A stretch of DNA of 64,000 nt from Candidatus Magasanikiibacteriota bacterium (GTDB taxonomy: Bacteria > Patescibacteriota > Patescibacteriia > Magasanikbacterales > UBA922): the NCBI GenBank assembly GCA_041665025.1, contig JBAYJP010000002.1, positions 691-64,690 of the forward strand. Direction: 5' to 3'. The notes beneath the pieces are model-generated. The model was given only the letters and a program-made list of their open reading frames with translations, was not told where the DNA came from and searched no databases. Position 1 is the stretch's first letter; the number at the start of each line of letters is the position of its first letter. Of this stretch, positions 1-52,852 are shown one piece after another. The translations under genes and the position numbers were made by a program.

Positions 1-2630
<2,630 letters not shown>

Positions 2631-3242
2631 ATACCACAAATATTTATATACTACTTACTTGGTAAATTGTAATGATCATTCACTCAATATCTTCCGCAAA
2701 CATTCTTTCTTTCTTACACACTATACACAACTATGATTATGTACATTGTGCAAAATAAAATTGTTCTAATAAACGTGAAAGATAAATTTTGAAACAAAAT
2801 GACCGCTTCCGGCGGTCATAAACATACAAATATGTTTTGTCTATCCGCTTGGATGCTATGAGTAACGAATTGTCATTTGGTACATCATGATGAACAGGAT
2901 AGTACTAAAGTGTTACCCAGAGGTCCAAGCATATAGAGCGTGTGTCTTTGGACGTGGTTCCCGAGTAGTCGGGAGTGATATTCACGCTCGCATATAGTAT
3001 CTCAACCTCTTATATATGTCAAGCAGAGAGATGTGGATAAGATGTGGGAAAACCAAACAGTATTTTTATGTTAAAATAACTGACTTCTATCAATGTCTCA
3101 ACTCTCATAAAATGTCCCCAAATTCACCAAATTATTCTAATTTCTAATTCACCTAATAAAATTCCAAATACCAATTTGACCTTTTAATTTTTATTAGAAA
3201 TTAGGTGAATTGTAATTTAGGTGAATTTACAATTATTACAAA

Positions 3243-4174: not shown

Positions 4175-5629
4175 TTAGGATTTAATGACTGTCACAGTAT
4201 TTTGGTCAGCATTAATCTCGACATTATCTCCATCTTTCAAAAAAGTCGTCGCAAATTTTGTTCCAACTATGCAGGGTATACCGAGTTCGCGTGAAATGAT
4301 AGCAGCATGGCACATTATCCCTCCCTGGTCAGTAATAATTGCGCCGGCCATTCGCATGGCAGTAATATATTCAGGACTAGTCATAGTGGCTACTAACACC
4401 TCCCCCTTCTTCATATTTTTTATTTCTTTTGAATCTCTTATGATATGAACTGTTCCTCTATACAAGCCAGGAGAAGCAGTAGTTCCTAAAAGCGTTGCTT
4501 CCCTCTGTTGTTCTTTTTTTACATGGCGTGATACATATGATTTTGCTTTATTCCCTACAAGCATTTTCACGGCATCATCTTTAAAAATAAACAGGCTATT
4601 TTGTCTACGTTTTTTTAGTTCACTTTCTTCAGTAAAATTTTGTTGCAGAAGTGCTCTTTCCAGTTCTTCAGGGAGATAATATTGCATGAGATCTGTCGAG
4701 GTATGTACGCGTAGAGCTATTTCAGACAACATACGAGCCATATGATAATGGACGATGGTAAATAATTTTTTCTTATGATCCTGCAAATAAACTGCACGGC
4801 GTAAACTACCAAACAATATACTATATTTTTCTTCAATTTTGTATGTTTGTTCTATTTCTTTTTGTCTTTTTTCTAAACTTTTAAAGTAATTTTTACTTTC
4901 AAATAATCGTCGCTCCATCTCATCTTGTTTTAGTAATCTATCCAAAATAACAGAAAAATATTTTTTATCCCACAGATCAAGCCCGTAATCGTAGGGCACC
5001 CAAGAATATGCTTGTTCGTGTTTTGTTATTGCTGCATCAATATTTTTTAGCCGTTTCTTTTTAATCTCTATTGCTATACGAAATAGGTCATCCTCTTCTT
5101 CTTTTGCAAATGACTTTTCTTTCGAAGCAGTCAATACAGAGAAAATAAAAGAGGCTCTCTCCTTATCATAAAAGTTCTCTGCTAGATACTGCTTCAGATA
5201 TGTCCCCAATGACTCTTCGAGACCAATCACTACGGGTTCACTCCAAGCATATGCGTCGGTATACAATGTTATGTGCCGAGAAAATAATTTCCATAGTTCA
5301 TGATTATTTTTTTTGTGTACATCAGTTTTGTATAAGAAAGCTGCGTGTGCACTTAATTTTTCCATTTTTTGATCATATGTCTTTATGGCAAAATCCAAAA
5401 AATTCCTACGTTTTATAACCAGCGCCAAGCTATGCTGTGCCACTTTTCGTACATATGTCTGCGAAGCATACCAATACATCACGCCATCTATATATTGGAC
5501 AAGCGTGGGACCAAACGATATACCAAGAGATTCGTGCATCTTTTTGCAATATGACTGGGCGATGATATATGCATGTGGGATAAGGTGAATGCCTTCTTTC
5601 CGTTGCATGAAAATATAATCTTTGTTCAT
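4175..5629 (-). CDS. Protein with a C-terminal PEP-utilizing mobile (phosphohistidine swivel) domain and no ATP-grasp domain
   Basis: The C-terminus GEVLVATMTSPEYITAMRMAGAIITDQGGIMCHAAIISRELGIPCIVG is the PEP-utilizers signature. The N-terminal ~380 aa match nothing I recognise. Confidence 0.7.
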   Translation of the reverse strand: MNKDYIFMQRKEGIHLIPHAYIIAQSYCKKMHESLGISFGPTLVQYIDGVMYWYASQTYVRKVAQHSLALVIKRRNFLDFAIKTYDQKMEKLSAHAAFLYKTDVHKKNNHELWKLFSRHITLYTDAYAWSEPVVIGLEESLGTYLKQYLAENFYDKERASFIFSVLTASKEKSFAKEEEDDLFRIAIEIKKKRLKNIDAAITKHEQAYSWVPYDYGLDLWDKKYFSVILDRLLKQDEMERRLFESKNYFKSLEKRQKEIEQTYKIEEKYSILFGSLRRAVYLQDHKKKLFTIVHYHMARMLSEIALRVHTSTDLMQYYLPEELERALLQQNFTEESELKKRRQNSLFIFKDDAVKMLVGNKAKSYVSRHVKKEQQREATLLGTTASPGLYRGTVHIIRDSKEIKNMKKGEVLVATMTSPEYITAMRMAGAIITDQGGIMCHAAIISRELGIPCIVGTKFATTFLKDGDNVEINADQNTVTVIKS

Positions 5630-5634
5630 AGAAT

Positions 5635-7122
5635 TTAATTATTATTTTGTGGAGTTAGAATTCGTACTGTACCATGATTGGCTCGCACGGCCACAATATC
5701 ACCAGTTTTAATTTGGGTAGTGGCAGTATGAGTATTTATTATACATGGCTTACCAGCCAAGCGAGCGTTAATAGCCGCATGACAGAGCATACCTCCCGCA
5801 TTGGTCACTATAGCTCCAGCTTTTTTTATAATTTCCAACATACTATCATCAGTCATTTCTGCAATTAAAATTTCTCCAATTTGAAACTTTTTTATATCTT
5901 CTTTTTTTTCTATCACCCGAGCAACCCCCTGGGCATAACCCTGGGCTCCAACTTTTCCTGCTACTGAATGGCCTAGTTCACTTTGTTGTAAAATTTCCTG
6001 TAATTCTTCATAGACTTTTTTAACCTCTGTTCCTTCAATTATTTTATAATCTTTGCCTAATATAGAAAGCAATAGACCCTGATTAAAACGATTTTTCAAA
6101 GTATGTTTTTTAATCAGACCATGCAACAAATTATCCAATTCTTCAAAAGTTAAAAAATATAAAAAATTTGCTTCTACTCCGGTAGTTTTTTCCAATCGTT
6201 TAAATAATTTATTCCACAATTCTTGAACTTGCACATTTACTGTCTGTCGATATTCACGCCATTGTCCCAACTCTTTGAAAAATTCCAAAGGATCCACACT
6301 TAATTTATATTTTTTCAAAATCGTTTTAATAAGCTGGCGATGTTTTTTGGCACGCGCCATTCTCTCTTTGGTCTGCAAGCTTTTGTCCAGAATATTTTCG
6401 CTGGTTAAAAGTTCCGCAATTTCTGCTTGAGTAAAATTATAAATCTTACCAATCCGCGCTACTTCTTTATTATCAAATCCCAAATCAAAGCTATCAATAA
6501 AAATTGCCGTGGACCAAAATTTTTCCAAAGTATTTTGCCACTGCTCCAAAAAATTCAACAATTCGTTAACACCCCATTCTAATGGAAAACCAGTTGCGTA
6601 TTCCTGGCAAAACGCTTCTACCTTTTTCCCATAATCAAAAAAACTTTCTTTTAACTCAAAATGTCGCCGACTTAATTCTCCATATTCTTTATAAACCGCC
6701 TCTGCCATTTCTGCAAATGAGGAAGTAGTATGCCAAAAAACTTCACACACGCCATTTTTAAAATAAACATCGCAAGTGCCCAATCCTTCATCAAAAAATT
6801 TTGGATTAGGATGAATAATGCCAGCAATTCTGGGCCAAAAAATTATAGGACTTAAAGTCAGTATCTGACGATACATTTTGGGGGTGCTTTCTTCATTTTG
6901 TTTGGGTTCAAATTCTACAATATCAGTAATATTCAATCCGTAGCGTTCACAAATCCGATCCAGAGTAGAAAACCATACCCCCTCAGCCTCACCATGATAC
7001 AAAGCTGTAATCGTGTTGCGATTGATACCAGTTTCTTGGCTAATCTCAGAGATATTTTTACCCAATTTTTTCGCTATAGTATGTATTTTTAACTTAATCA
7101 TAATGTAAGTGTTTATAATCAT
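5635..7122 (-). CDS. HTH (XRE-like) domain fused to a protein with a C-terminal PEP-utilizing mobile domain; paralog of 4175-5629
   Basis: The N-terminus IHTIAKKLGKNISEISQETGINRNTITALYHGE is a helix-turn-helix. The C-terminus ILIAEMTDDSMLEIIKKAGAIVTNAGGMLCHAAINARLAGKPCII is the swivel phosphohistidine motif. Confidence 0.7.
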   Translation of the reverse strand: MIINTYIMIKLKIHTIAKKLGKNISEISQETGINRNTITALYHGEAEGVWFSTLDRICERYGLNITDIVEFEPKQNEESTPKMYRQILTLSPIIFWPRIAGIIHPNPKFFDEGLGTCDVYFKNGVCEVFWHTTSSFAEMAEAVYKEYGELSRRHFELKESFFDYGKKVEAFCQEYATGFPLEWGVNELLNFLEQWQNTLEKFWSTAIFIDSFDLGFDNKEVARIGKIYNFTQAEIAELLTSENILDKSLQTKERMARAKKHRQLIKTILKKYKLSVDPLEFFKELGQWREYRQTVNVQVQELWNKLFKRLEKTTGVEANFLYFLTFEELDNLLHGLIKKHTLKNRFNQGLLLSILGKDYKIIEGTEVKKVYEELQEILQQSELGHSVAGKVGAQGYAQGVARVIEKKEDIKKFQIGEILIAEMTDDSMLEIIKKAGAIVTNAGGMLCHAAINARLAGKPCIINTHTATTQIKTGDIVAVRANHGTVRILTPQNNN

Positions 7123-7816: not shown

Positions 7817-7931
7817 CCTTCACGTCGGAGCGGAATTCAACATCCGCCGCAACCAACGCTTCGCTCCGACACATTCGTTTCTTTAAAAACAAAGACGCGA
7901 GTGCAAAATAGCGAAGCGTTGAGATATAAAA

Positions 7932-7960
7932 AACACTGCCCATTACGGCGGTGTTTTTTC
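7932..7960 (+). terminator. Rho-independent terminator
   Basis: Stem cactgcc, loop cattac, stem ggcggtg, then TTTTTT. Confidence 0.6.
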
Positions 7961-8053
7961 TCAATTTGAAAATATGAATATCTTCACAGTCTCAAATCGA
8001 ACGGTGTGGCCTCCAACACACCTTGTTGCTCCCACCTTGAAAGACATTCTTTT

Positions 8054-10749: not shown

Positions 10750-10930
10750 ATCAGCTTATAGTTATGGCTGATCTTGATACGATAGACCCATATGGATCTA
10801 GGTGTCTCAAGACCAACTCTGGTTAATAATTTATAATTTCAAATTTTGAATTTTAAAACAATTTTAAATTCTAAAATTTTTTAATTCGAAATTGTTTCGA
10901 AATTTAAAATTCAAAATTCAAAATTTTGTC

Positions 10931-11497
10931 TTATCTTTTCACATTTCTCCTACCGCCGAGCATTCCATCTCCAATAAGAAACTTACTTTTGTCTTCCGAT
11001 AGATCAATAAAATCATCCGCTTCTTCTTTCATCTTGCCCGATGCAGTTTCTCCAAATGCCACGACTTCAACTTGTTTGCCCATACTTTGTAAATAGTCTA
11101 CGAGAGGCAAGTAATCTCCATCGCCAGAAACAATGACAATTGCATCCAAACTCGGAGACAAACGAATTGCGTCAACTGCAAGCCCGACATCCCAATCTGC
11201 TTTTTTCATTCCCGTGTTGAATATTTGCAAATCTTTTTCATGCGTCTCTATGCCCAAATTGTACAAGGCTTCAAAAAAAGGCTGTTCTTCTTTGCTTTCG
11301 GTGCGCACAACATAGGCAATCGCGCGAATCAACTTCCTACCTGCGACTGCTTCTTTTACAATATTACCAAAATTAACTTTCTTGCCAAATAAGTTTTTGG
11401 CAGAATAATACATATTCTGCACATCGATAAACACCCCTACGCGTTGGTCGGGGTGTTTCAAAGGATGATTTCTGTGTAGATTATTTTTCATCTTCAT
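10931..11497 (-). CDS. NYN/LabA-like (YacP-type) domain protein
   Basis: Motifs VGVFIDVQNMYY...DWDVGLAVDAI...IVIVSGDGDYLPLV. The start is uncertain; several Met codons overlap the end of rpsO. Confidence 0.7.
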   Translation of the reverse strand: MKMKNNLHRNHPLKHPDQRVGVFIDVQNMYYSAKNLFGKKVNFGNIVKEAVAGRKLIRAIAYVVRTESKEEQPFFEALYNLGIETHEKDLQIFNTGMKKADWDVGLAVDAIRLSPSLDAIVIVSGDGDYLPLVDYLQSMGKQVEVVAFGETASGKMKEEADDFIDLSEDKSKFLIGDGMLGGRRNVKR

Positions 11498-14197: not shown

Positions 14198-14287
14198 AAA
14201 ATTATTTTAAAATGAAAGAAATAGGGTTTTGGGTTAGGATGCCAGAAATGTAATTCCGGTTTCTTTGCCCAATTCCCAAAACCTATT

Positions 14288-15049
14288 TTATTTCTTATCT
14301 TCAACTTTAGCTTTTACAACAACTGGTGCTTTTGGAGCAAGTGGTTTTTGTATGACTTCTTTTGGAATCTCGGCTACGCCCTCTTTTATCGTATCGCGCA
14401 TAAGGCCGACGATCATTTCAATAGATTTTACTGCGTCGTCATTGGCTGGAATAACATACTGGACTTTGGTTGGATTTGCGTTTGCGTCGCAAACTCCGAT
14501 AATAGGCACGTTCATTCTGTTTGCTTCAGTCACTGCAGTTTTCTCGCGTTGAACAGAAGGGACAAACAACGCATCAGGCATGCGAGTAAGTGAACTCAAA
14601 CCTGCCAAATACGTATCTTGTTTTTCAAGCAATTTAGCAATATCCAATTGTTCTTTCTTCGTATAGTGTCCCAATTCTCCTTTTGCTTGTTTATCCTTGA
14701 GATCATTATACTTGCGAATCAACTTTTTGATTTCAACAAAATTGGTAAGCATACCACCGAGCCACCGCTCAGTCATATAGGGCATACCGCAATCTTGCGC
14801 TGCTTTTTTTACAATTTCGCGTGCTTGAGGCTTGGTGGTCACAAACAAAATTCTCTTCCCTTCGGAAGCCATTTTCTTTATTTCCGGCAACACTTTTTCA
14901 AGTTGCGCTTTTGTCTTGTCCAAATCCAATATATGGACTTGATTGCGTTGGGTAAAGATGAAAGGTTTCATCTTTGGGTGCCAACGCGAAACTCTGTGTC
15001 CAAAGTGGACACCTGCCTGGAGCATGTCCAGTACTGAAGGAATGTTCAT
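14288..15049 (-). CDS. rpsB: Ribosomal protein S2
   Basis: Motifs LQAGVHFGHRVSRWHPKMKPFIF and QVHILDLDKT. Confidence 0.95.
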   Translation of the reverse strand: MNIPSVLDMLQAGVHFGHRVSRWHPKMKPFIFTQRNQVHILDLDKTKAQLEKVLPEIKKMASEGKRILFVTTKPQAREIVKKAAQDCGMPYMTERWLGGMLTNFVEIKKLIRKYNDLKDKQAKGELGHYTKKEQLDIAKLLEKQDTYLAGLSSLTRMPDALFVPSVQREKTAVTEANRMNVPIIGVCDANANPTKVQYVIPANDDAVKSIEMIVGLMRDTIKEGVAEIPKEVIQKPLAPKAPVVVKAKVEDKK

Positions 15050-15962: not shown

Positions 15963-15978
15963 CAACGAAAAAACAAGA

Positions 15979-16006
15979 CAGGTGACCTTTGTGGCGCCTG
16001 TTTTTA
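15979..16006 (+). terminator. Terminator after rpmE
   Basis: Stem acaggtg/cgcctgt followed by TTTTTATTT. Confidence 0.5.
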
Positions 16007-16009: not shown

Positions 16010-16118
16010 ACTCACGTATCACATAGCACGTAACACATAACAAATAATAATTGTTGTGCTATAATATGCAAGTTGATACGTGATACGTGTTATGTGATAT
16101 GTGTTACGTGACACCTGA
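16010..16118. repeat. Palindromic spacer of the acgtaacacataac / gttatgtgttacgt family; it encloses an extended -10 promoter for prfA
   Basis: The left arm cacgtatcacatagcacgtaacacataac is the reverse complement of the right arm gttatgtgatatgtgttacgtgac. The centre holds TGcTATAAT at 16056-16064. Confidence 0.6.
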
Positions 16119-16123: not shown

Positions 16124-17182
16124 ATGTTACAAAAATACCTTGACCTCAAAACTAAATACCAACAACTCGAAGCAGATTTACAAAATCCTGCTGTTATTAA
16201 TGATCAAAAAAAATTAAAACAAATTGCTCAGGAATATGATGATATCAAAGAAACTGCAGCAAAAATATTGGAACTTGAAACGACAGAAAAAAATATAGGT
16301 GAAAACGAAGCCATTATCACAGATGCCAGTGACGCCGAACTTTCTGAACTTGCACAAGCTGATATACCTATACTTGCTGAAAAAAAGACAACGCTTGAAC
16401 AAGAGCTAGCCGAACTAACTCGGACGAAAGATCCTATGGACAAAAAAGACGTCATCGTCGAAATACGCGCAGGTGCCGGGGGTGATGAAGCGGCACTGTT
16501 TGCCGGAGACCTCATGCGTATGTATATGAGATATGCAGAAAACAAAGGATGGAAAACAAAGCTCATTGATGAAAGCCGCATTGGCATTGGCGGATACAAA
16601 GAAATAATTTTTTCAATGGAAGGAACCCGCGTCTATGCTGACATGAAGTATGAAATGGGTGTACACCGTGTGCAACGCGTCCCTGAAACTGAAAAAGCCG
16701 GGCGCATACACACATCTACCGCAAGTGTTGCCGTGCTTCCTGAAATTGAAGAAGCTGAATTTGAAATCAATACAAAAGATTTGCGCATAGACACATTTTG
16801 CGCAGGGGGGCATGGTGGTCAAAGCGTCAACACCACACACAGTGCGGTACGTATTACCCATATTCCTACGAATACCGTGGTCCAATGCCAGGATGAACGA
16901 TCCCAACAACAGAATAAATTCAAAGCAATGAATGTCTTGCGTGCACGCTTGTATGAACTAGATAGAGAAAAAAAGATGGCAGCACTCGACGCCAAACGCA
17001 AAAGCCAAATTGGAAATGCAGACCGCAGTGAAAAAATCCGCACGTACAATTTTCCCCAAGACCGCATCACTGACCACAGAATCCACGAGAGTTGGAATAA
17101 TATTGGTATAATTTTAAATGGCGATTTGGAAAAAATTATTGAGGCATTGAGAAAGGTGGATTACGAAGGACAAAGCCAATGA
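16124..17182 (+). CDS. prfA: Peptide chain release factor 1
   Basis: GGQ motif ([12 protein letters not shown]). The RF1-type tripeptide region reads RVPETE (PET rather than PAT). The gene ends with TGA. Confidence 0.9.
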
Positions 17183-17194: not shown

Positions 17195-19084
17195 ATGAAA
17201 AAAATAATCGTAAAATCCCTCATCTTTGCATTTTTATGTACGGCAGCATCAATAGTAATATCATTCCTTAATTTTATACTTGACAAGCAGCTCATTGCTC
17301 TTATAGATAATTTTAAACAACTTACCATTACTAACACAAATAGCCTTGCACCAATAATTTTGACATTTAGCAAGGCTATTTTTTTATACTTTATTTTTTT
17401 CTTCTCTATCTTCCTTATCGGATTTATTATTGCAAAAAAAACTAAAAAAAAACGTTACATCTTTCTAACAATAATTCCCCTACTATCTTTAGTCACACTT
17501 AGGTCCATGGCGGTCGAACCATTCCTCTATCAATTATTTTACAACAGCTCTTCAATTATAAAATGTATAATGGATGTCACGACAAAAATCCCCTACAGTA
17601 AGATCATTTTTGATGTCTTAATCACCGCACATATTATCACACTAACTTTGATTATCGCATACACCCAAAAACAACGTTACGTCATCCTATCATTATGGAT
17701 AATTCTTTTTTCGGGCTACTATATATTCAGGACATCGGTAACACAAATACGGAACACAGAACCAAATGAAGAAACTATCATATTTATTGTCGTAGACTCT
17801 CTTAGAAAAGACGCTATAAAAAATAATCCGCAGTTATTTTTGCACACGTTATATCAAAACTCATTCGTTGCAGAAAATATGTTTACTCCAAACCCCGCAA
17901 CTGTCCCGGCGATGGCAGCAATACTGAGCAGTAAATACCCATACACTTCGCGTTCGACAGCTATGTTTTTGGATAAACAACTTGATATTTCTTATATTAA
18001 TGAACTAAAAAAAGATTATCACATCTCCATCCACACAGATTCGACAGATGACGACATAATCAATCGCTCAAACTTCAACATACCCTTTGATTATATCAAT
18101 GCTCCATATATTGATAACACCTCACAATTTATAGCTGGTGTACTCAAAAAAAATGTTGTATTGCTCTCCTTTATCATCCCCGCGGTCAGAAATATATTCA
18201 TCCCTGAATATTATGAGTCAGATATTAATACCAATAGTGAGCATCTCATTGAACCCTTCATTAACTATCTCAAACAGAACAAGAAACAAAAAAAGATAGC
18301 ATTTTTAGGTTTAGGAAATTTACACATACCCTACGAAGCACGTTACCCATACTACCAAAAATATCCGAATGCGCGTGGGACGTATTTTAACTGGTCATTT
18401 GATCACGCAGATTATCTATACGAAGGAAATGACACAGTACTAAACCAAAATATAAAAAATTTGTATCTTACCAATCTGACTGTCGCAGATGACCAGGTGA
18501 AAAACATATTTATACTTCTTCAAAACAACAACCTGCTAGCAAATACCACGGTAGTTGTACTCTCCGACCATGGTGAAAGCTTATATGAAAATGACTTGCA
18601 TCTATATTCTCACAACAATATCGAATCATCATATGTGGTAAACGTACCTTTTTTGGTATATAAAAATGAAATCCGCGGCATACAAAACTCACAAAACTTT
18701 GCACTCATGGATGCCATAGAAATCGCGCGCCATCCAGAAAATGCAGAATCATTTCGACGTGAATTCATTTATTTAGAGACTGACCTAGACTTAAAGGACA
18801 AAAAAAGTCCTCTGTATATCGAGCATGCCGGCGATGTATATGACACGGATGACATGAATAATATGAAATTCAAAGATAAAAATATCTGGCAACAATTCAA
18901 AAAACGAGGTATTATATACAAACAATATCAGCTCACATACAACCCAACAGAAGAAACGTATTCTTTGTATAATCGGATTGATGACCCACTATACCAAACA
19001 AACATACAAAACGAAAATCCAGAGATATACGCTATTATGAAAAAACAACTTGACAAATTTATAGCCGAATCAAATATCTATTAA
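17195..19084 (+). CDS. Polytopic membrane protein with a sulfatase-like (LtaS/phosphoethanolamine-transferase family) domain
   Basis: Multiple N-terminal TM helices, then IIFIVVDSLRKD and VVVLSDHGES, which are alkaline-phosphatase-superfamily motifs. Confidence 0.65.
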   Translation: MKKIIVKSLIFAFLCTAASIVISFLNFILDKQLIALIDNFKQLTITNTNSLAPIILTFSKAIFLYFIFFFSIFLIGFIIAKKTKKKRYIFLTIIPLLSLVTLRSMAVEPFLYQLFYNSSSIIKCIMDVTTKIPYSKIIFDVLITAHIITLTLIIAYTQKQRYVILSLWIILFSGYYIFRTSVTQIRNTEPNEETIIFIVVDSLRKDAIKNNPQLFLHTLYQNSFVAENMFTPNPATVPAMAAILSSKYPYTSRSTAMFLDKQLDISYINELKKDYHISIHTDSTDDDIINRSNFNIPFDYINAPYIDNTSQFIAGVLKKNVVLLSFIIPAVRNIFIPEYYESDINTNSEHLIEPFINYLKQNKKQKKIAFLGLGNLHIPYEARYPYYQKYPNARGTYFNWSFDHADYLYEGNDTVLNQNIKNLYLTNLTVADDQVKNIFILLQNNNLLANTTVVVLSDHGESLYENDLHLYSHNNIESSYVVNVPFLVYKNEIRGIQNSQNFALMDAIEIARHPENAESFRREFIYLETDLDLKDKKSPLYIEHAGDVYDTDDMNNMKFKDKNIWQQFKKRGIIYKQYQLTYNPTEETYSLYNRIDDPLYQTNIQNENPEIYAIMKKQLDKFIAESNIY

Positions 19085-19114: not shown

Positions 19115-20638
19115 ATGAAAATAATCAATTGGATCAAAAAACATTCCTTGTTTATTGTAATTCTTGTATGTTCATTGGGTTTACACATATTGTCTCTCCT
19201 CAATAGAGGAGATTTTTCATTTGATGAAACATTCAGTACATATTTTAGTTCTCTACCATGGATAGAATCCCTAAAATATTGGACAATTGAAACCAACCCG
19301 CCACTCCACATGTTATTGCTTAGATTATGGATCATACTATGGGGGAACAACGAGATAGCTATACGCTTTCTCTCTACGATCTTTAATCTACTGTCATTGG
19401 GGTCACTCTACTACCTCGTACATAAGTGGTATTCAAAAAATCATGCCCTACTCGCTGTGGCAATAATGAGCCTTTCAGATTATTTTATTGTACTTGGAAC
19501 TGAAGCCCGGACATACAGTCTATTAAGTTTTCTTACTATCTTTTCTTGCATCTATTTTCTAAAAATAACACAGGAAAACAATATATCCAACGTAACAATT
19601 CTTACTTATAGCATAATACAACTGCTCCTATTATATTCCCACCTGACCTCACTGCTGATTATAATTTTACAAATTCTTATAACCATCCTTATATACAAAG
19701 AGAAAGAAAAAACAAAAAAAATCATACAAGCAAATCTGTGGCCATTCTTGCTATTTCTTGTCTGGCTCATACCATCTATTATAGCCAAACTAAGTTCATC
19801 AGCCTCAACCGGTTGGTTTTTCAATGAGTCAAAAAGTGGAAGAAATCTTATGTACGTAGTAGCCGATTTATTTGTGTACGAACCACAAAATATTATTATG
19901 TTTCTAATTGTCATGGGTTTTATTGGGGTATGTGTATATAATATGTCAGCTCTTAGACACCTAGAAAAAACAAAAAAAAATATTCATACGATAATTATTT
20001 TGTGGGCCCTCACCCCAATGATTGCTGCCAGCTTGCTTGGGATACACCTCCCTAAATATATTACTTTTTCATTACCTGCGATTTCGATTTTGTTTGCTTT
20101 TTCAATTATTTCAATACCTGACAAAAAACTAAAAATCAGCGCCATAATAATATTCATATCTCTTTTATTGCCATATACATACGCCAGTGCTATTACACCC
20201 CTTAAATCATATCGCCAAATACTATCTTATATTGAAAAAAATAAGACAGAGCATAGCATGATTATGACAGTGCCTTTTAATCAAATTATGGAAATAAAAA
20301 GATATTATACAGGCACGATACCACTCGTGGGGGTCTATCCACGAGATGATGATTTCTCATTTGAAGAACGTACCGCAAAATTCAATTGGCAAGAAATTTC
20401 TATTACTCAAAAAGTACTCGATACCTACATGGAAGAAAAGACCAAGGATACGGATACTATCTTTTTTATTCAATATGCACCAAACCTCCTAGAACCACCC
20501 GTTCCAAAATGGTTTATCACACATGGGTGGAAGTTAACGGCATGTCTTAAACCTCAACTACGAAATAATGCATATGTTTTCATGTTTCAAGCCCCAAACT
20601 ATCAGACATCTACTTCAACAGTCACACAAGTTAATTGA
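19115..20638 (+). CDS. GT-C family glycosyltransferase (ArnT/PMT-like)
   Basis: About 12 TM helices. The first loop carries the DE motif (FDETFS), as in ArnT/PMT. Confidence 0.6.
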   Translation: MKIINWIKKHSLFIVILVCSLGLHILSLLNRGDFSFDETFSTYFSSLPWIESLKYWTIETNPPLHMLLLRLWIILWGNNEIAIRFLSTIFNLLSLGSLYYLVHKWYSKNHALLAVAIMSLSDYFIVLGTEARTYSLLSFLTIFSCIYFLKITQENNISNVTILTYSIIQLLLLYSHLTSLLIIILQILITILIYKEKEKTKKIIQANLWPFLLFLVWLIPSIIAKLSSSASTGWFFNESKSGRNLMYVVADLFVYEPQNIIMFLIVMGFIGVCVYNMSALRHLEKTKKNIHTIIILWALTPMIAASLLGIHLPKYITFSLPAISILFAFSIISIPDKKLKISAIIIFISLLLPYTYASAITPLKSYRQILSYIEKNKTEHSMIMTVPFNQIMEIKRYYTGTIPLVGVYPRDDDFSFEERTAKFNWQEISITQKVLDTYMEEKTKDTDTIFFIQYAPNLLEPPVPKWFITHGWKLTACLKPQLRNNAYVFMFQAPNYQTSTSTVTQVN

Positions 20639-21467
20639 CCCTCTTGATGCTGAACTGTTAATCGCACACGTGATACAAAAACCGCGGGAATTTGTTGTTG
20701 CGCATCCAAATTTTATGATTAGAAGATTAAGAGATTGGAAGATTGGAAGATTATTTAAAAAACGAGCACATGGTGTCCCACTTGCATATGTAACAGGGCA
20801 TAAAGAATTTTTTGGATTGGACTTTGTGATAAATAAACATGTATTGATACCCCGACCGGAGACGGAGATGATTGTCTCTCTGGCGCTTGAAAAATTGAAG
20901 ATTCAAGATTCAAGATTGAAGACTATTTTGACTGATGTGGGAACGGGGTCTGGCTGTATTCCTATTTCTGTCACTTCAACACTCAAGCACTTCAACACTC
21001 AAGCACTAACCGTCTGTGCAACGGACATTTCCAAATCTGCACTTAAAGTTGCGAAACAAAACGCACAAAAATATAATGTTAATATTACATTTCTACACGG
21101 AAATCTTTTGGAACCCGCGATTAAAAGATTAAAAATTAAAGACTCGAGATTGATTATAACGGCGAATTTACCATACTTAACTTTAGAACAATTTCAAAAT
21201 GAGCACTCAATCCAACACGAACCTAAACGAGCACTCGTGGCAGACAACAACGGACTTGGCTTATATGAACAACTCCTCAAACAGATCCGATTATTAGTTA
21301 CTAATTACCAATTACTAGTTACGTGTCTCTTCGAAATCGATCCGCGCCAATCTCCTCAAATCTCTGGACTTATCAAAAAATATTTACCAGATTCAACATT
21401 TGAAATAAAAAAAGACCTCGCCGGGCATGATCGAGTCGTCTGTATAACTATCCACAGCGTTTCTTGA
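20568..21467 (+). CDS. prmC: Release-factor glutamine N5-methyltransferase PrmC (HemK), carrying several in-frame repeat insertions
   Basis: Motifs LAYVTGHKEFFGLDFVINKHVLIPRPETE and DVGTGSGCI, plus NLPY (an NPPY variant). The start is uncertain because the ATG at 20568 overlaps the upstream gene by 70 nt. Confidence 0.8.
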   Translation: MHMFSCFKPQTIRHLLQQSHKLIDPLDAELLIAHVIQKPREFVVAHPNFMIRRLRDWKIGRLFKKRAHGVPLAYVTGHKEFFGLDFVINKHVLIPRPETEMIVSLALEKLKIQDSRLKTILTDVGTGSGCIPISVTSTLKHFNTQALTVCATDISKSALKVAKQNAQKYNVNITFLHGNLLEPAIKRLKIKDSRLIITANLPYLTLEQFQNEHSIQHEPKRALVADNNGLGLYEQLLKQIRLLVTNYQLLVTCLFEIDPRQSPQISGLIKKYLPDSTFEIKKDLAGHDRVVCITIHSVS

Positions 21468-25954: not shown

Positions 25955-26070
25955 ACACTTCACGTGACACGAAGCACGCATCACGTAACATATCAATTAA
26001 CAAATTACACTATATAACTTTTCCCGCCACAGCGGGATCCCGCTCGCTGCGGGACAACTTTACAGCTTCG

Positions 26071-26976
26071 TCAACGTAATGGCATGTACGCATTTTTATC
26101 AAACACATTTACCAAGGGCTCTATTTTCACTACATCTACAGTTATCTCATCAGATAAAGACGCAAGAGAAATAGTCCTCTTCTCTCCTGCTCTAAATTGA
26201 TTTACGCGCAATAACGCAACACCGGTCATTTCTCCATTTTCGTCATAATACAAGACATTAAAATCTCCATCCCAATAACTAAACAATGAATCATTACTTA
26301 TGTCAAATGTTATCAGATGCGTACTACGTCCATCTTTGCCCGTCGCGGGCAGAAATGTTGGTTCGCCAACTGAAAACTGCAAGCGTTGTGCGATAAATTT
26401 GAGTGGCTCTGGCACGCCATGCGGATTTAAGCGCGTCCATTTTGTATCAACCAAATCAAATTGTGCAGAAGAAGGCGGGCGAGGAGATGTCTGCCCATAC
26501 GCAACAATATATCTCGTCTGCCCGGGCAAAAGCGTTGTTTCGAGCGTCTCAGTTTGCCCTCCGCCATAATTAAAACGATACGATGGTTTGGCAACCCAAT
26601 CCTCATTGGGGTTTGTCGCTTCAATCACAAAATCATATTTATCTTTTGCACTATTAAATACGTGTTGATTTCGTACAATCAAATCCTTAGGCTGTTGCAA
26701 CGCATGAACATTTTCATAGTTAATCTGTTCACTCACAAGCTGGGTGCGCAACTGTTCGTCTTTTGTATAATCAAATAATAAATATTTACCCCATACAAAT
26801 AACCCGATGCCAATCGTAATAACGCTCCATACACTAAGCACAGCAATAAACAACTTGCGCAATACTATCTTATGCTCGACATACCACGTGGCGAATTTTA
26901 ATGTCTTATTGCTAAATTCACCTGTTGGGTCTTGGTAGCGTTCAAATGGAGATTTGGTAGATGGTTTGAGAGGCAT
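26071..26976 (-). CDS. Single-pass membrane protein with an extracytoplasmic domain, hypothetical
   Basis: TM helix at about aa 40-62. Adjacent to ftsW/rodA. Confidence 0.5.
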   Translation of the reverse strand: MPLKPSTKSPFERYQDPTGEFSNKTLKFATWYVEHKIVLRKLFIAVLSVWSVITIGIGLFVWGKYLLFDYTKDEQLRTQLVSEQINYENVHALQQPKDLIVRNQHVFNSAKDKYDFVIEATNPNEDWVAKPSYRFNYGGGQTETLETTLLPGQTRYIVAYGQTSPRPPSSAQFDLVDTKWTRLNPHGVPEPLKFIAQRLQFSVGEPTFLPATGKDGRSTHLITFDISNDSLFSYWDGDFNVLYYDENGEMTGVALLRVNQFRAGEKRTISLASLSDEITVDVVKIEPLVNVFDKNAYMPLR

Positions 26977-27162
26977 ACGTTGTCTAAGTAGCTAAGTTAA
27001 CTAAGTTTTCTAGGCTGGCTAAGTTATAAAACTACTTAAGTGCTACAGTGCTTAAGTGATACCAGTATACCAAAAAAAATAGTAACAGAACATACCTTGA
27101 AATGGATAGACAAAGATGTTTTAATTACAATATCCAAAATACCCCGCAAAGAGGAGGTCGGG

Positions 27163-27399: not shown

Positions 27400-27601
27400 A
27401 GGATGGTGGACGACCCCGCTCGATCCACCTACTGTATGTTTAATTTCTTAAATATATAGTAGGGAGACTATTCGAGCGGGGTTTTGTTGTTTTATAGATC
27501 GGTTGTTGATTTGTACCCACACATATGGTAAAATAAAGTCGTTAAAAAAGGAAAAAATTCTTATTTGAAATTTTATTAGGTGAATTAGGTGAATTGTAAT
27601 T

Positions 27602-29785: not shown

Positions 29786-29813
29786 AATACATATCACATA
29801 ACATGTATTACAT

Positions 29814-29846
29814 AAAAAAACTCGGACGTAGTCCGGGTTTTTATTT
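29814..29846. terminator. Bidirectional terminator
   Basis: aaaaaaactcggacgtagtccgggttttt. Confidence 0.6.
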
Positions 29847-30711: not shown

Positions 30712-30874
30712 ATTGATTTAAAAAAAAGATATTGGGCATTGGGTCAAGATACCAGAAAAATGAAATAAAATTCTGGTTTCCTAGCCCATTACCCATCTCC
30801 CTTGTTCGGTCCACAAAGGACAGCTTCTCGACGAGGGTATCATAATAAGGATAATACTATATAAAAATAATACT

Positions 30875-31297: not shown

Positions 31298-31450
31298 ATT
31301 CACATAACACATATCACATAACACATAACAAACCTGAAAGGGTTTGTTTTTGTCATAATAATTAGCTAACTTCAATACATTTTGCTATAATTATCTATAA
31401 TCTTGAATCTTTTCTGCCTTGATTCTTTATATACTAACTAACCAATATAT

Positions 31451-32380
31451 ATGTCACATCACACTTCCTCCCCCAACAAAGTCGCCATTATTGGTGCTGG
31501 AGCTGTCGGTTCTACTGCCGCGTATGCAGCAACACTCAAAAACGTAGCCGCGGAAATCGTTCTCATTGATATTAATGACACAAAAGAAGAGGGAGAGGTC
31601 ATGGATATTCGAGATGGTATTTGTTTTGTAGAAACAGGATGCATAAAAGGTGCAGATTTCAAAGACGCAAAAGATGCGGACGTCATTGTCGTCACTGCCG
31701 GAGCTCCACAAAAGCCCGGAGAGACACGTCTAGATTTGGTGAAAAAAAATAAAGAGATTCTGTTATCAATTTTCAAAAAAATTGGAAAACTAAAACCAAC
31801 TGCCATTATCCTCATGATCGCAAATCCCGTGGATGTACTTACCTATTTGGCGCAAGAAATCACCGGCCTTCCCCATGCTCAAGTATTTGGCAGTGGAACT
31901 GGACTCGATACCGCGCGGCTCAAAACCGAACTCGGTAAATATTTTAATGTGAGCGCACAAAATATTCACGGCTACGTACTGGGTGAACACGGAGATACTG
32001 AATTTGTAGCGTGGAGCACCGTAACTATAGGGGGCGTGCCTATATCCCAAATTAAACAATTCAACGAACGTACTAAAAAAGAAATGGAACAACGCGTCCG
32101 CACAGAAGCCTATGAGATTATTAATAGAAAAGGTGCAACTTTTTACGGTATAGGACTTGTCATCTCAGAAATGCTCGAGGCCATACTTTACAACCAACAC
32201 AAAATTATGCCGGCATCAGTGCGACTTGAAAATTGGAACGGGGTGAGCAATGTATGTATTGGAGTTCCTGCAGTGATTGGCAGAAATGGGATTGAAAAAA
32301 TATGGCCACTCAAATTACCTTCAGTTGAATTAAAACGATTCAAGAGGTCAGCAGAGACCTTGAAGACTTACTTAAAATAA
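31451..32380 (+). CDS. ldh: L-lactate dehydrogenase (LDH/MDH family)
   Basis: Motifs IIGAGAVGS, TAGAPQKPGETRLDL and GEHGDTEF. Confidence 0.8.
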   Translation: MSHHTSSPNKVAIIGAGAVGSTAAYAATLKNVAAEIVLIDINDTKEEGEVMDIRDGICFVETGCIKGADFKDAKDADVIVVTAGAPQKPGETRLDLVKKNKEILLSIFKKIGKLKPTAIILMIANPVDVLTYLAQEITGLPHAQVFGSGTGLDTARLKTELGKYFNVSAQNIHGYVLGEHGDTEFVAWSTVTIGGVPISQIKQFNERTKKEMEQRVRTEAYEIINRKGATFYGIGLVISEMLEAILYNQHKIMPASVRLENWNGVSNVCIGVPAVIGRNGIEKIWPLKLPSVELKRFKRSAETLKTYLK

Positions 32381-32439
32381 TTAAAATTCACAGCCCTGCC
32401 CTGTACCCTTGTGGTACAGGGTTGACAAATTGGAAAAAG

Positions 32440-32470
32440 TGCGGTACTATAGCCGCACTTTTTATTTACC
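32440..32470 (+). terminator. Terminator after ldh
   Basis: agtgcggtactatagccgcactttttatt. Confidence 0.5.
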
Positions 32471-32606
32471 GCCACGTAAAGCGACTTCGTCGCCACGTGG
32501 CTAGCGTGGGACCCTGCCATCAGGGGTTTGAACCACTAACACGACTATAGAATATACTCTATCTACTTTCATAATTTCGTATATTTCGTAGTTCGTATAT
32601 AATTAT

Positions 32607-33931: not shown

Positions 33932-34483
33932 ATGCCCAAACTTATCCTCGGTTTTGTCGGACAAATGGCTAGTGGTAAAGGAACAGCTGTCAGCTATCTC
34001 AAAGAAAAATATGGTGCGAGCACATACCGTTTTTCTGGTATGCTTACTGACGTTTTGAATCGTCTGTACTTGCCAAATGACCGGGAACATTTACAAAAAC
34101 TTTCTCAATCTTTGCGCGAAACGTTTGGAGAAGAAACACTCGCAAAAGTTATGGCAGAAGATGTAAAAAATGATACAAACAATGTTATTGCGATTGATGG
34201 TATTCGTCGTCCTGGCGATGTAGCACATTTGAAAAATGTCCCTGGCTTTATTCTTGTTCATATTAGCGCAGATATTGAAAAACGTTTTGAACGGCTTAGT
34301 AAACGCGGTGAAAAGACAGATGATCTTTCAAAGACGTTTGAACAGTTCAAGCAAGAACACAATAATGAAGCTGAGATAAAAATTGAGGAAGTGGCGAAAG
34401 ATGCAATCGGGTACATTAACAATAACGGGGGTATTAGTGAACTGTATAAACAACTAGATAAACTGGTTGATAAATTCACCTAA
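33932..34483 (+). CDS. P-loop nucleoside/nucleotide monophosphate kinase-like protein
   Basis: The Walker A motif GQMASGKGT. It lies between the dCMP deaminase and dut. Confidence 0.5.
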   Translation: MPKLILGFVGQMASGKGTAVSYLKEKYGASTYRFSGMLTDVLNRLYLPNDREHLQKLSQSLRETFGEETLAKVMAEDVKNDTNNVIAIDGIRRPGDVAHLKNVPGFILVHISADIEKRFERLSKRGEKTDDLSKTFEQFKQEHNNEAEIKIEEVAKDAIGYINNNGGISELYKQLDKLVDKFT

Positions 34484-34592
34484 TTACCTAATTCACCTAA
34501 TTTCTAATAAAATTCCAAATATCAAAATTAGAAATTGGGCATTAGAAATTTTATTAGGTGAATTAGATATTAGATGAATTAGGTGAATTTAA
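34484..34592. repeat. Palindromic intergenic element of the aattcacctaat...attaggtgaatt family
   Basis: The same architecture occurs at 3135-3232, with a partial copy at 27565-27602. Confidence 0.65.
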
Positions 34593-36403: not shown

Positions 36404-36467
36404 ACAAGTTCAGAGTTCGGAGTTCACAGGAACTCTTCTCCGAACTACGAACTGTAAACTCCGAACT

Positions 36468-36941
36468 ATGTTTTCATTAATCGCCGCTATCTCCCAAAAC
36501 AATTGCATCGGCAAAGACAACAAAATTCCCTGGAACATCCCGGAAGATTTTCAGTATTTCAAAAAAATGACCTTAGGAAAAACCTGTCTTATGGGACAAA
36601 AAACGTTTGAATCAATTTTGGAATACTTAAAAAAACCATTACCAGAAAGAAAAAATGTGGTTATCACGAAAAATACTGAATACAAAGCACCAGAGGGAGT
36701 TGAAGTACTTCACTCCATCGATGACGCATTTGCCACATTAAAAGATGAAGATGTGTTTGTCTGTGGCGGTGCAAGTATTTATGCCCAAACAATTGATCGC
36801 GTGGATACGCTCTACATCACCCATGTTCATCAGGTTGTAGATGGAGATACTTTTTTCCCGGAGATTAAGAAAGATACGTGGGAGGAAACGTGGAGAGAAG
36901 ATCATGAAGGATTTTCATTTGTTAAGTACAAACGAATTTAA
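36468..36941 (+). CDS. folA: Dihydrofolate reductase
   Basis: IAAISQNNCIGKDNKIPW. Confidence 0.9.
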   Translation: MFSLIAAISQNNCIGKDNKIPWNIPEDFQYFKKMTLGKTCLMGQKTFESILEYLKKPLPERKNVVITKNTEYKAPEGVEVLHSIDDAFATLKDEDVFVCGGASIYAQTIDRVDTLYITHVHQVVDGDTFFPEIKKDTWEETWREDHEGFSFVKYKRI

Positions 36942-36966
36942 AATTTCGAATTTCGAAATTAAAACT

Positions 36967-37650
36967 ATGAATAAAGGTCTCTTTATCATGCTCGAGGGCA
37001 CCGACGGTTCTGGCAAAAGCACACAGACCAATCTTTTGGTTGAACGACTGAAACAAGAAAGACAGCAGGTTGAACAAATTAGTTTCCCCCAATACGGCAA
37101 ACCGAGTGCCGCGCTTGTTGAAGATTATCTAAATGGAAAATTTGGAAGCGCCGAGGAGGTAGGACCTTATCGTGCCTCTATCCTCTATGCAGTGGATCGC
37201 TTTGCCGCATCAGAGCAAATCAAAAAATGGCTGTCGGAAAACAAAATTGTCATCGCAAATAGATATGTAGCCTCAAACATGGGTCATCAGGGCGGAAAAA
37301 TAAAAAATCCTGCTGAACGCCAAAAATACTTTGATTGGAATTACGATTTGGAGTATACTATACTCGGTATTCCAAAACCTGAAGTCAACATCATTTTGCA
37401 TGTTACGCCCGATATATCTCAGCAACTAGTAGACAAGAAAGGCGACCGAGAATACTTAAAAGGCAAAAAACGCGATATTCATGAAGATGATCTACACCAT
37501 TTAGCTGATGCGGAGCAAGCGTATCTCGACATTGCAAAGCATTATCCTGAATTTACACTCATTGAATGCGTACAAAATAACAACATGCTTCCTCCAGATA
37601 TAATTCATAAAAAAATCTGGTCGGAAATAAAAAAGCATCTTAATTCATAA
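36967..37650 (+). CDS. tmk: Thymidylate kinase
   Basis: The start was trimmed to MNKGLFIMLEGTDGSGKST, which carries the P-loop. Confidence 0.9.
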   Translation: MNKGLFIMLEGTDGSGKSTQTNLLVERLKQERQQVEQISFPQYGKPSAALVEDYLNGKFGSAEEVGPYRASILYAVDRFAASEQIKKWLSENKIVIANRYVASNMGHQGGKIKNPAERQKYFDWNYDLEYTILGIPKPEVNIILHVTPDISQQLVDKKGDREYLKGKKRDIHEDDLHHLADAEQAYLDIAKHYPEFTLIECVQNNNMLPPDIIHKKIWSEIKKHLNS

Positions 37651-38457: not shown

Positions 38458-38625
38458 GTATTGCAGAACAAAAAGGCCCTCGAGAGAGGGTCTTTTAATT
38501 TAGCTAGGTTAGTGGTAAAATCAAACTATATTTTAATGTACGAAATACGAAAACTGCGAAAGGTACGAAAAAAATGTATTTCGAATATTTCGTAGTTTTC
38601 GTATTTCGTACATAATCATCAACCT

Positions 38626-42167: not shown

Positions 42168-42250
42168 ATTAATAGAACACGAATAAAACGAATTAAACGA
42201 ATTTCAACAAATTCGTCCTGATTCGTTAGATTAGTTAAATTCGTGTCCTA
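42168..42250. repeat. Palindromic spacer of the gaacacgaat...attcgtgttc family
   Basis: A second member with the same architecture lies at 55085-55170. Confidence 0.6.
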
Positions 42251-42258
42251 TTATATAT

Positions 42259-43100: not shown

Positions 43101-43158
43101 CTTGAGTCTTAAATCTTACGTACTAAAAAAGACTAACATTTCAAACTACTTACGCTCT

Positions 43159-52740: not shown

Positions 52741-52852
52741 GAAACAAGAAACAAATAAAATTCCAAACTCCAAAACATAAATTGATTATTATAATTTGGA
52801 TCTTTATTTGGAAATTGTATCTTGTGTCTTAATTCTGTGTTGATTAAATACT

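Follow-up and report, generated by a model that had tools for sequence, protein, structure and literature searches.

Inverted arrays of short tandem units in the intergenic spacers of Magasanikbacteria

What produces the two mirror-image arrays of 7-base tandem units that occupy the spacer between rpmE (L31, 15618-15962) and prfA (16124-17182) in a Candidatus Magasanikiibacteriota bacterium, and do they serve the expression of the genes beside them? We addressed this question in a stretch of 64,000 nucleotides (positions 691 to 64,690 of contig JBAYJP010000002.1, hereafter the window) and in comparison loci from relatives and from other phyla, the window and all comparison sequences being metagenome assemblies. 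The arrays upstream of prfA are one case of a pattern that recurs in many spacers of the window, and such heptamer arrays are a trait of the Magasanikbacteria clade. Our preferred explanation, to which we assign a probability of roughly 45%, is that they are fast-evolving arrays of 7-9 base units akin to cyanobacterial sequences of the short tandemly repeated repetitive (STRR) type. They would be made and homogenised by slippage, acquire their mirror arm by template switching, have some of their hairpin units copied to new sites and act, where they act at all, as an RNA hairpin, most copies being tolerated passengers.

The rpmE-prfA spacer and the array pattern

The focal spacer begins with a terminator-like GC-rich hairpin and T-run 3' of rpmE (15975-16006, + strand), recognised from sequence and fold; it precedes the focal element, lies outside the arrays and has orthologous hairpins in nearly all relatives. 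The left array (16012-16047, + strand) reads CACGTAT CACATAG CACGTAA CACATAA CAAATAA, with period 7 and the consensus CACRTAW, and was delimited by Tandem Repeats Finder (TRF; 16013-16047) and by the arms of the inverted repeat. The right array (16073-16118, + strand; TRF 16074-16111) is its reverse complement, consists of six heptamers of the form (GTGATAC/GTGTTAT)n and stops 5 nt short of the prfA start at 16124. The arms are 84% and 81% complementary, and the RNA fold reaches -37.3 kcal/mol (z -4.5). In the loop between the arrays, a regular-expression scan found TGCTATAAT (16057-16065, + strand), an extended -10 promoter consensus match 58 nt 5' of the prfA ATG, with which a motif (TGGTATAAT) is aligned in L005 and L008 (labels of this type denote comparison loci from relatives). 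As a consensus match only, it is a candidate promoter; the promoter-like sites mentioned below were likewise called from the extended -10 motif alone, and a generic sigma-70 scan was uninformative (62 sites found versus 52.8 expected).

The same periodicity runs through the spacers of the window. TRF reports 33 non-overlapping arrays (period 6-10, at least 2.5 copies) versus 2 after a shuffle in which composition is kept within 60-base blocks, and the periods are mostly 7, then 8-9. In the 45 spacers, 5-mers match themselves at a distance of 7 bases 115 times versus 10 expected, at 14 bases 79 times versus 9, and at 21 bases 55 times versus 10, with lesser peaks at 8, 9 and 16. These peaks identify the heptamer as the basic unit, stretched to 8-9 bases at some loci. 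Spacers make up ~11% of the DNA and hold 20 of the 31 scored arrays, and at least 10 unrelated unit families occur within the 64 kb.

Inverted pairing accompanies the periodicity. A partner, defined as at least three reverse-complement core matches within 150 bases, is present for 11 of the 20 spacer arrays, the expectation from random positions being ~0.1 per array; 9 of the 30 co-directional spacers contain a Watson-Crick inverted repeat scoring at least 28, a value reached by 1.7% of shuffles. Paired arrays fold into imperfect hairpins of 25-60 bp. The RNA folds of nine elements lie between -21 and -62 kcal/mol (z -3.2 to -10.4), and eight of the nine beat all 200 dinucleotide shuffles. In Rfam searches of the window, at the gathering score and even at E<=0.5, only 23S rRNA and tRNA-Leu matched, and no spacer was explained by any family. 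These results confirm the spacer array pattern as real and not the product of chance or low complexity. The shared architecture put forward in the original prediction is borne out as well: a left array, a centre and an inverted right array, where the centre may be a promoter-like site (prfA), a terminator hairpin (pyrF) or nothing.

The source genome, represented here by these 64 kb, has 40% GC, and many array units are A/T-rich. These facts, together with the metagenomic origin of all sequences, could be taken to mean that the pattern is AT-rich low complexity, chance or an assembly artefact. We give that explanation practically no credence. Composition-preserving shuffles, the control by which the original prediction could have been refuted, do not reproduce the elements (2 arrays against 33, with flat distance spectra). 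Element folds exceed those of dinucleotide shuffles in eight cases of nine, the same features appear in dozens of independent assemblies from different studies, GC-rich units also occur, and the arrays are far shorter than one sequencing read. The shuffle, fold, independent-assembly and GC-rich-unit controls led us to reject it.

The closest relatives found in genome and metagenome scans are 75% (PrfA) and 72% (GatB) identical. PrfA of the window is 65-75% identical to that of Candidatus Magasanikbacteria metagenome-assembled genomes, and the gene order around prfA is conserved between them and the window. Array density in 38 loci from relatives (~0.6 Mb) averages ~3.5 per 10 kb; the 39 control loci, taken from other phyla, have ~1 per 10 kb. 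Peaks of 5-mer self-matches at 7 bases (297 versus 90 expected) and 14 bases (251 versus 78) recur in the relatives and are absent from the 39 control loci, and 41 of the 76 spacer arrays of the relatives have an inverted partner (0.10-0.16 expected per array in the window and relatives). The elements are therefore not peculiar to this window. Arrays are just as abundant in some metagenome contigs that are more distant (GatB 46-68% identical), and one of these contigs, L083, of 51% GC, has GC-richer units such as GAACGCC and TTAGGTGG; because of these contigs, AT-richness is not the cause of the arrays, and the trait reaches beyond the source genome. A literature search returned no account of such repeats in Patescibacteria or Magasanikbacteria.

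Turnover, cassette replacement and dispersal among relatives

In orthologous spacers the architecture is kept and the unit usually is not. Upstream of prfA, the units are TTATTGTTTA/TAAACAATAA in L020, L021 and L023, CAGTCAG/CTGACTG in L034 and ACGGAT/ATTCGTA in L037, and some relatives have none. The spacers of L003 and L002 are minimal, with terminator, promoter and ATG, and those of L007, L001 and L037, whose prfA DNA is 88-90% identical to that of L003/L002, carry ~110 extra bases of arrays past the -10 site. By presence or absence of this ~110-bp element, and by the sequence of the promoter-like region next to it, L003 goes with L002 and L007 with L001, whereas prfA DNA groups L003 with L007 (90%) and L001 with L002 and L037 (88%). 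Because presence and absence of the element conflict with the prfA tree, the sequence comparison suggests that alleles of the prfA spacer may have been exchanged between lineages. On mobility, for which a comparison of orthologous spacers had originally been proposed as a test, the distribution at the prfA spacer departs from the gene tree. At the five insertion contexts inspected, those of the dispersed GAACACGRAT family described below, no flanking direct repeat that would mark a target-site duplication was found. The gatB leader hairpin, with a stem of 35 bp, is missing from all nine closest GatB loci (L081-L089), which have a terminator and promoter-like site only. Since the prfA-upstream and gatB-leader elements are absent from relatives, the elements are dispensable add-ons.

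Turnover extends to coding sequence. In prmC (window 20568-21467; L005 12502-13410; L008 11639-12514), TRF finds five arrays on the + strand in variable loops of the protein (20717-20753, 20894-20922, 20972-21007, 21119-21140 and 21290-21322; total span 20717-21322), with period 7-8 and one scored as period 16. The gene is an array hot spot, with 7-8 base units at the same five loops, in every relative checked (including L021, L034 and L037), and the units are unrelated between genomes; L005 and L008 have, for example, CTTACTC x3.4 and GTCAGAT x4.3, both perfect. In the alignment of these two prmC genes, conserved blocks are 90-100% identical versus 17-50% for the array cassettes, and loop length stays roughly constant despite cassette replacement. 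This difference indicates that the cassettes are replaced much faster than point substitution proceeds. Two of the cassettes are inverted copies of each other in L005, L021 and L023 (scores 37-44; codon shuffles <=32). We rejected the generalisation that loops 2 and 3 are always complementary, which holds in these three loci and fails in the window and L008.

Whole cassettes replaced within the divergence of ~90% identical genomes, and paired cassettes kept complementary, would also fit a dedicated process, other than passive slippage, through which arrays of short units are actively written and renewed at particular places (the spacers, helix 25 of the 23S rRNA and the five PrmC loops). We regard such site-directed rewriting as quite improbable. 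If real, it would be a templated sequence-renewal system and could make prmC, and thereby translation termination, switchable.

Two further observations concern this region. A second kind of repeat, GC-rich CCCCT/AGGGG palindromic elements, is present in spacers (upstream of prfA in L014; also in L019, L003 and L007), and palindromes of this type also form translated, in-frame parts of PrmC, as with SPTRGGETNNSSPYKGEVGGG in L014, whose inverted-repeat score is 52. In relatives prfA and prmC are adjacent; in the window two genes intervene, one sulfatase-like (17195-19084) and the other like a PMT_2 glycosyltransferase gene (19115-20638).

An array element is also found in a structural RNA. The 23S rRNA gene carries a ~125-nt insertion of inverted AAAGTTAT / ATAACTTT arrays (1744-1872, - strand; cmscan alignment) between positions 583 and 584 of the Rfam large-subunit rRNA model, in the loop of helix ~573-594, which we take to be the helix 25 region. 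It folds as a single hairpin (-61.9 kcal/mol, z -9.1), and its unit recurs in a spacer of L023. The gene itself covers window positions 1-2609 on the - strand. The remainder of the window contains no 16S rRNA gene, which suggests that the rRNA genes are unlinked. The 633 bases 5' of the 23S gene (2610-3242) are strongly structured (z -7).

One family is dispersed. An element of the GAACACGAAT family, also written GAACACGRAT, with inverted ends AATAGAACACGAAT lies between pdxS and pdxT (42170-42253, + strand), where it extends from 2 nt past the stop codon to 5 nt short of the ATG (fold -26.3 kcal/mol, z -6.5); a second copy lies between pyrD and pyrK (55086-55167, + strand; fold z -4.5), where the fold of the spacer pairs the AUG itself. 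The two copies are 86% identical over ~100 bases, centre included. The family ends, AATRGAACACGRAT, recur at three further gene junctions in L001, L007 and L037, giving five non-orthologous junctions in four genomes. A pattern search of ~1.9 Mb of window and comparison sequence returned eight matches to AATRGAAYACKRA, all of them ends of elements of this family. Its members have 14-base inverted ends and a length of 84-100 bp and lack coding capacity, and in size and ends the family, alone among those of the window, resembles MITEs (miniature inverted-repeat transposable elements).

The original prediction had regarded the whole set as palindromic elements of repetitive extragenic palindromic (REP) or MITE type. 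That description suits the GAACACGRAT family, but most arrays are locus-specific heptamers with neither a REP/MITE consensus nor shared ends. In its general form, the proposal is that non-autonomous units resembling MITEs or REPINs (small repeat units that form hairpins) are spread by a transposase encoded elsewhere, the tandem units being internal decoration or decay. The pdxT and pyrK elements and their kin, with conserved 14-base ends around a variable hairpin-forming interior of ~90-100 bp overall, speak for it, as do the departure of the prfA spacer from the gene tree and a pair of elements with AATTCACCT / AGGTGAATT inverted arrays. One of the pair lies between a Smr-domain gene and the 23S rRNA leader (3129-3228, - strand; centre ATAAAATTCCAAATA), the other between a kinase-like gene and dut (34473-34589, + strand; TRF and fold, -37.4 kcal/mol, z -6.7). 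Alignment shows them alike in both arms and centre. In the second, left arm and stop codon overlap, and the right arm stops 8 nt short of the ATG at 34598. The GC-rich palindromes in spacers and translated inside PrmC (L014, L019) also favour mobility, and recall Rickettsia palindromic elements. REPINs are moreover defined by two conserved inverted ends and a less conserved hairpin spacer (PMC3116915), as in the GAACACGRAT family. We nevertheless think mobile DNA a rather unlikely general explanation, with no target-site duplication at the insertion contexts mentioned, no transposase, REP-associated tyrosine transposase (RAYT) or integrase domain among the 60 window open reading frames (ORFs) annotated with Pfam, two or three copies per family in 64 kb, and a heptamer periodicity that transposition does not explain. 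No insertion sequence was found in the window, and no search was made elsewhere.

Genomic positions and tests of function

The arrays stand before, around and after signals of gene expression. Hairpins separate operon partners, as at pdxS-pdxT, pyrD-pyrK and the following sites:
between pyrB and pyrI (48485-48641, + strand), where CCAATAG / CTATTGG inverted arrays were identified as an arm pair with a TRF array at 48610-48642; between thyA and folA (36407-36470, + strand; TRF, fold z -3.2), where the right arm of the AGTTCGG / CCGAACT arrays reaches the folA ATG; between rpsB and tsf (14216-14296, - strand), a GGTTTTGGG / CCCAAAACC hairpin; and between a NYN-domain gene and pnp (10826-10934, - strand), AATTTTG / CAAAATT inverted arrays with a fold of z -4.5. 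Further pairs are an ATTGGGC / GCCCATT hairpin between nusG and rplK (30727-30798, + strand), a GGAAACC / GGTTTCC hairpin between guaB and purA (44598-44683, + strand), AAGAAAC / GTNTCTT inverted arrays that separate a carbamoyltransferase gene from a lyase gene (52728-52834, + strand; arm pair), and CTCAAA / TTTGAG inverted arrays between miaA and the gene at 58454-59164 (59171-59274, - strand; TRF and inverted-repeat arms).

Other arrays follow a promoter-like site, in the leaders of gatB, gyrB and guaB, or surround one, at prfA. The gatB element (38536-38613, + strand), made of TACGAAA / TTTCGTA inverted arrays with arms of 35 nt that are 89% complementary, lies wholly 3' of TGGTAAAAT (38513) and folds at -42.2 kcal/mol (z -10.4). 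In the gyrB leader a single ATTAGGTGA x2.3 array of the AATTCACCT family (27575-27595, + strand; TRF) is again 3' of TGGTAAAAT (27526), and the guaB leader has AAGATT / AATCTT inverted arrays (43005-43117, + strand; TRF 43073-43117). A single TTTCGTA-type array lies just 5' of rplA (32567-32601, + strand), and CTAAGTT arrays followed by CTTAAGTG arrays (26984-27058, TRF; no strand assigned) stand next to the start of a - strand gene (26071-26976).

The unit family of the prfA spacer itself recurs at terminators. CACGTAA ... TGATACG x5.3 arrays (58357-58453, no strand assigned; TRF with 100% match, aligned with the focal element, fold -41.1 kcal/mol, z -6.7) flank a two-way terminator hairpin, AAACTCCTATCCGGGAGTTT (58388-58407), between the convergent pyrF and 58454-59164. 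Single arrays occupy the interval from stop codon to terminator hairpin 3' of gyrB (29786-29815, + strand; CACATAA-type, lacking an inverted partner) and of rplK (31301-31330, + strand; CACATAA x4.3, TRF), and a GTG-type array of this family is on the sense strand of the ftsW leader (25960-25992, - strand; Pfam FTSW_RODA_SPOVE). An action in trans of the 3' arrays (CACAUAA) on the complementary 5' leaders (GUGAUAC) was considered and set aside: for this family the polarity agrees in six of six cases, but several of these are orthologous and other families show both polarities.

All sites named in the original prediction were found at or within a few bases of the positions given there. Its group of AAATTCAAAATT arrays needs revision: the arrays exist and that at 10826-10934 was confirmed, but those at 59171-59274 (CTCAAA) and 36933-36972 do not really share the unit, so that the aaattcaaaatt grouping is loose. 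The elements at rpsB-tsf, nusG-rplK, guaB, guaB-purA, pyrB-pyrI, carbamoyltransferase-lyase and 26984-27058, together with those in 23S rRNA and prmC, are additional to that list.

The prediction had also offered insulators, terminators or protein-binding arrays as roles. A single dedicated insulator or terminator role fits poorly with arrays that lie before, around and after promoter-like sites, in rRNA and in coding sequence. The prfA-upstream element is missing from close relatives. The array stems lack the U-run of an intrinsic terminator (position 42253, for example, is followed by ATATATATG); GC-rich hairpins with a U-run occur only at central hairpins such as 58388-58407, and at 15975-16006.

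Binding of proteins, with each unit family the operator of a different regulator or nucleoid protein placed symmetrically around promoters, is unlikely because the units are so diverse. The short repeated cores with variable spacing do resemble binding-site arrays, the units upstream of prfA are conserved in three genomes where they flank a promoter-like -10 site, and some cores recur across genomes. Set against this, there are at least 10 unrelated families in 64 kb of a small genome, the families do not track gene function, and the positions of one and the same family include a promoter-like site, a junction of convergent genes and 3' regions. A spacing of 7 bp places successive sites on different faces of the helix, arrays lie inside rRNA and coding sequence, and elements are dispensable in close relatives; as a general account we consider protein binding very improbable. 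The related idea of a regulon was discarded, the unit families not following gene function in the Pfam annotation.

A stronger case can be made for the RNA: the hairpins may be selected punctuation, maintained as RNase III sites, as barriers to 3' exonucleases, or as coupling devices that hide the next start, which has no Shine-Dalgarno (SD) motif, until the upstream ribosome opens the stem, the tandem units being an easy way to build and repair long stems. We rank it second, well below the preferred explanation, and the positions within operons and the pnp case favour it. The hairpins are strong (z to -10.4) and separate co-transcribed partners (pdxS-pdxT, pyrD-pyrK, pyrB-pyrI, thyA-folA, rpsB-tsf). 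Several stems span from a few bases past a stop codon to 0-9 nt before the next ATG, the distance found at pdxT, pyrK, folA, pyrI and prfA, and at pyrK even the AUG is paired. SD-like 4-mers precede only 6 of the 57 starts in the window, T occupies position -1 in 46 of the 57 (consensus T-ATG), and G is depleted from -15 to -1. Because these starts lack SD motifs, local RNA structure near them should matter, and we infer that a stem ending 0-9 nt before an ATG could plausibly gate initiation. Long inverted repeats are 3.6 times commoner in transcribed-through than in divergent spacers (50/241 versus 4/59; Fisher p=0.013), a count to which strong ordinary terminators contribute.

Further support for selected punctuation comes from individual loci. 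The hairpin upstream of pnp is kept in four of five genomes, with a sequence that differs in the window, and E. coli pnp is autoregulated through a leader hairpin cut by RNase III. The ACGGAT units of L037 are all opposed to ATTCGT, so that the sense RNA has G:U pairs there. A similar hairpin occurs at the 23S insertion position, where RNase III-excised intervening sequences are found in other bacteria. For STRR hairpins, transcript stability or translational coupling has been proposed (PMC2670836).

The mismatches in the stems give a different answer. Selection at the RNA level is expected to tolerate G:U and not A:C on the sense strand, yet in 50 stems (1,442 pairs, 161 mismatches) there is no strand signature, with 41 G:T versus 35 A:C mismatches, in a comparison that could miss a bias below ~1.9-fold. 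The hairpins as a whole are not anchored to stop or start codons (25 nearer the stop versus 25 nearer the start). Many arrays have no partner arm, the flanking arrays are not complementary in L001 and L007, and elements are missing from the same spacers in close relatives. With a promoter-like site inside the loop, hairpin formation is impossible for the main transcript, and the arrays in the prmC loops have no obvious RNA role.

Several further features of the window were recorded alongside the arrays. The spacers 7817-8053 (convergent, z -9.6), 32381-32560 (three GC-rich hairpins 5' of rplA, z -9) and 27421-27490 (a long hairpin 5' of the gyrB promoter-like site) are strongly structured and lack both tandem arrays and an Rfam match. 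Just 5' of the pnp start and 3' of the array hairpin, a second structured segment (10750-10825; GGTCTTGAGAC ... GATC) is conserved in sequence in the orthologous spacers of L001, L003, L007 and L037 and may be a pnp leader element. Near gyrB, at ~26-27 kb, both gene orientation and cumulative GC skew reverse, as they would at a replication origin; an origin at this strand switch was considered and rejected, there being no cluster resembling DnaA boxes. A lactate/malate dehydrogenase gene (31451-32380) sits between rplK (L11) and rplA (L1), which are normally adjacent. Two adjacent paralogous genes (4175-7122, - strand) encode a C-terminal PEP-utilising-enzyme mobile domain, in one case with an N-terminal Cro/C1-type helix-turn-helix, and an ORF between gatB and pdxS (40250-40870) weakly matches the HEPN AbiU2 domain of abortive infection (E 8e-6, slightly below the curated threshold).

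Proposed origin, precedents and significance

We return to the explanation stated at the outset, fast-evolving STRR-like arrays. Replication slippage, with the bias towards heptamers known from simple repeats in bacteria, would create and homogenise the arrays; intrastrand template switching would make the mirror-image arm or keep the arms matched; and whole hairpin units of ~90-100 bp would occasionally be copied to new sites in the manner of REPINs. The effect would be physical and not sequence-specific, in that a transcript crossing both arms would fold into an imperfect hairpin of 25-60 bp. Between cistrons or after a stop codon, such a hairpin is expected to block 3' exonucleases, offer a target to RNase III and mask the start region of the next gene. 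If the loop contains a promoter-like site, folding would be confined to read-through transcripts, and those initiated at the promoter would have just the right arm. Most copies would be tolerated passengers, with at most modest, locus-dependent effects on expression.

Directly observed are the heptamer period, the paired arms, the distribution within the clade, the fast turnover, the dispensability, the dispersed family and the absence of a strand signature; the mutational mechanisms and any RNA effect are inferred. A number of observations weigh against this explanation. In the window, L005 and L008 alike, CACATAMC / GTGATACGTG is retained in the element upstream of prfA, even though the PrfA proteins are only ~75% identical. 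Conservation across four genomes is seen in the ends of the GAACACGRAT family, AAGATT/AATCTT cores are present in 21 of 246 arrays in 11 genomes, and distant arrays of the window share a 7-mer 21 times versus 8.6 in a composition-matched null (~2.5x). Such conservation and sharing of units imply that local growth is not the whole story and that some units have been copied or are constrained. The enrichment of long inverted repeats in transcribed-through spacers, the position of many of them between the genes of two-subunit enzymes (pdxS/T, pyrD/K, pyrB/I) and the long inverted repeat kept 5' of pnp in four of five genomes, with other units in L001, L007 and L037, are hints of selection at the RNA level. 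Finally, the status of prmC as a hot spot in every genome checked has no explanation in these terms.

The closest precedent is the cyanobacterial STRR, a resemblance of kind and not of family. In heterocyst-forming cyanobacteria, 7-bp tandem repeats between hupS and hupL can form a hairpin within the operon (PMC2670836), for which pdxS-pdxT, pyrD-pyrK, pyrB-pyrI and thyA-folA are the equivalents in the window. Like our arrays, STRR are tandem 7-bp units of several families per genome and mainly non-coding, and they also occur in a structural RNA gene, there RNase P RNA, to judge from the title of Vioque 1997 as cited in PMC2858038, here 23S rRNA. They differ in that our host belongs to the candidate phyla radiation, with units that have no relation to those of cyanobacteria, show more degeneracy (7-9 bases), are mostly A/T-rich and change between loci; inverted pairing is the rule in the window and the exception in STRR, and the window arrays also extend to protein loops.

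Bacterial genomes contain an excess of heptameric repeats, for which slippage connected with the polymerase active site has been put forward as an explanation (PMC4692102). The GGGNATC repeats of Xanthomonas and Nostoc described in the same work resemble the window arrays in being mostly intergenic heptamers between co-oriented ORFs, near ORF ends, single or in inverted pairs, and in varying in length and sequence between close relatives while position is kept. They consist, however, of one G-rich, G-quadruplex-capable unit per genome, whereas the window has many unrelated units lacking G-runs. REP sequences, REPINs and bacterial interspersed mosaic elements (BIMEs) share with the arrays an extragenic location, several families per genome and folding as a hairpin in single-stranded DNA or mRNA (PMC3116915). 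The conserved-ends layout of REPINs fits the GAACACGRAT family and not most other arrays. REPINs also go with a cognate RAYT gene, for an IS200/IS605-like tyrosine transposase, that the repeats flank, and with tens to hundreds of copies per genome; the 60 annotated ORFs of the window include no RAYT, and a tandem heptamer interior is not a REPIN feature.

Two other comparisons concern insertions into genes. Rickettsia palindromic elements form conserved families of 100-150 bp that are tolerated in frame in protein genes, in spacers and in RNA genes; the prmC cassettes, in contrast, are short (~20-45 bp) and different in sequence in every genome. Intervening sequences in helix 25 of 23S rRNA occur in Salmonella, Leptospira and others, and the window insertion similarly adds an extended stem-loop in the same region; it differs in being built with the tandem-unit architecture of the spacers. 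The tandem repeats of Borg elements are described as pervasive, rapidly evolving and independently arising, with locus-specific units in intergenic and coding DNA (PMC9879509). As described there, these are direct repeats of archaeal extrachromosomal elements, in contrast to the imperfect 7-9 base units of the window and their common inverted pairs. Novel in the present case are the lineage, a multitude of units each specific to its locus, an almost regular pairing of inverted arrays around signals of expression, and cassettes replaced within prmC and 23S rRNA.

On the practical side, the arrays can lead gene callers and the assignment of start codons astray, and in metagenomes they could be used to mark strains. 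If the proposed explanation is correct, the replaced prmC cassettes would provide a clean readout of the underlying mutational process. The clade would offer a second, independent natural system for the role of heptamer arrays, a question that has stood since 1990 for the cyanobacterial STRR. In a lineage whose starts lack SD motifs, RNA structure beside start codons should matter for translation, and across an entire lineage of the candidate phyla radiation, whose genomes are close to minimal in size, much of the non-coding DNA would consist of rapidly renewed repeat hairpins and not of classical regulatory sequence.

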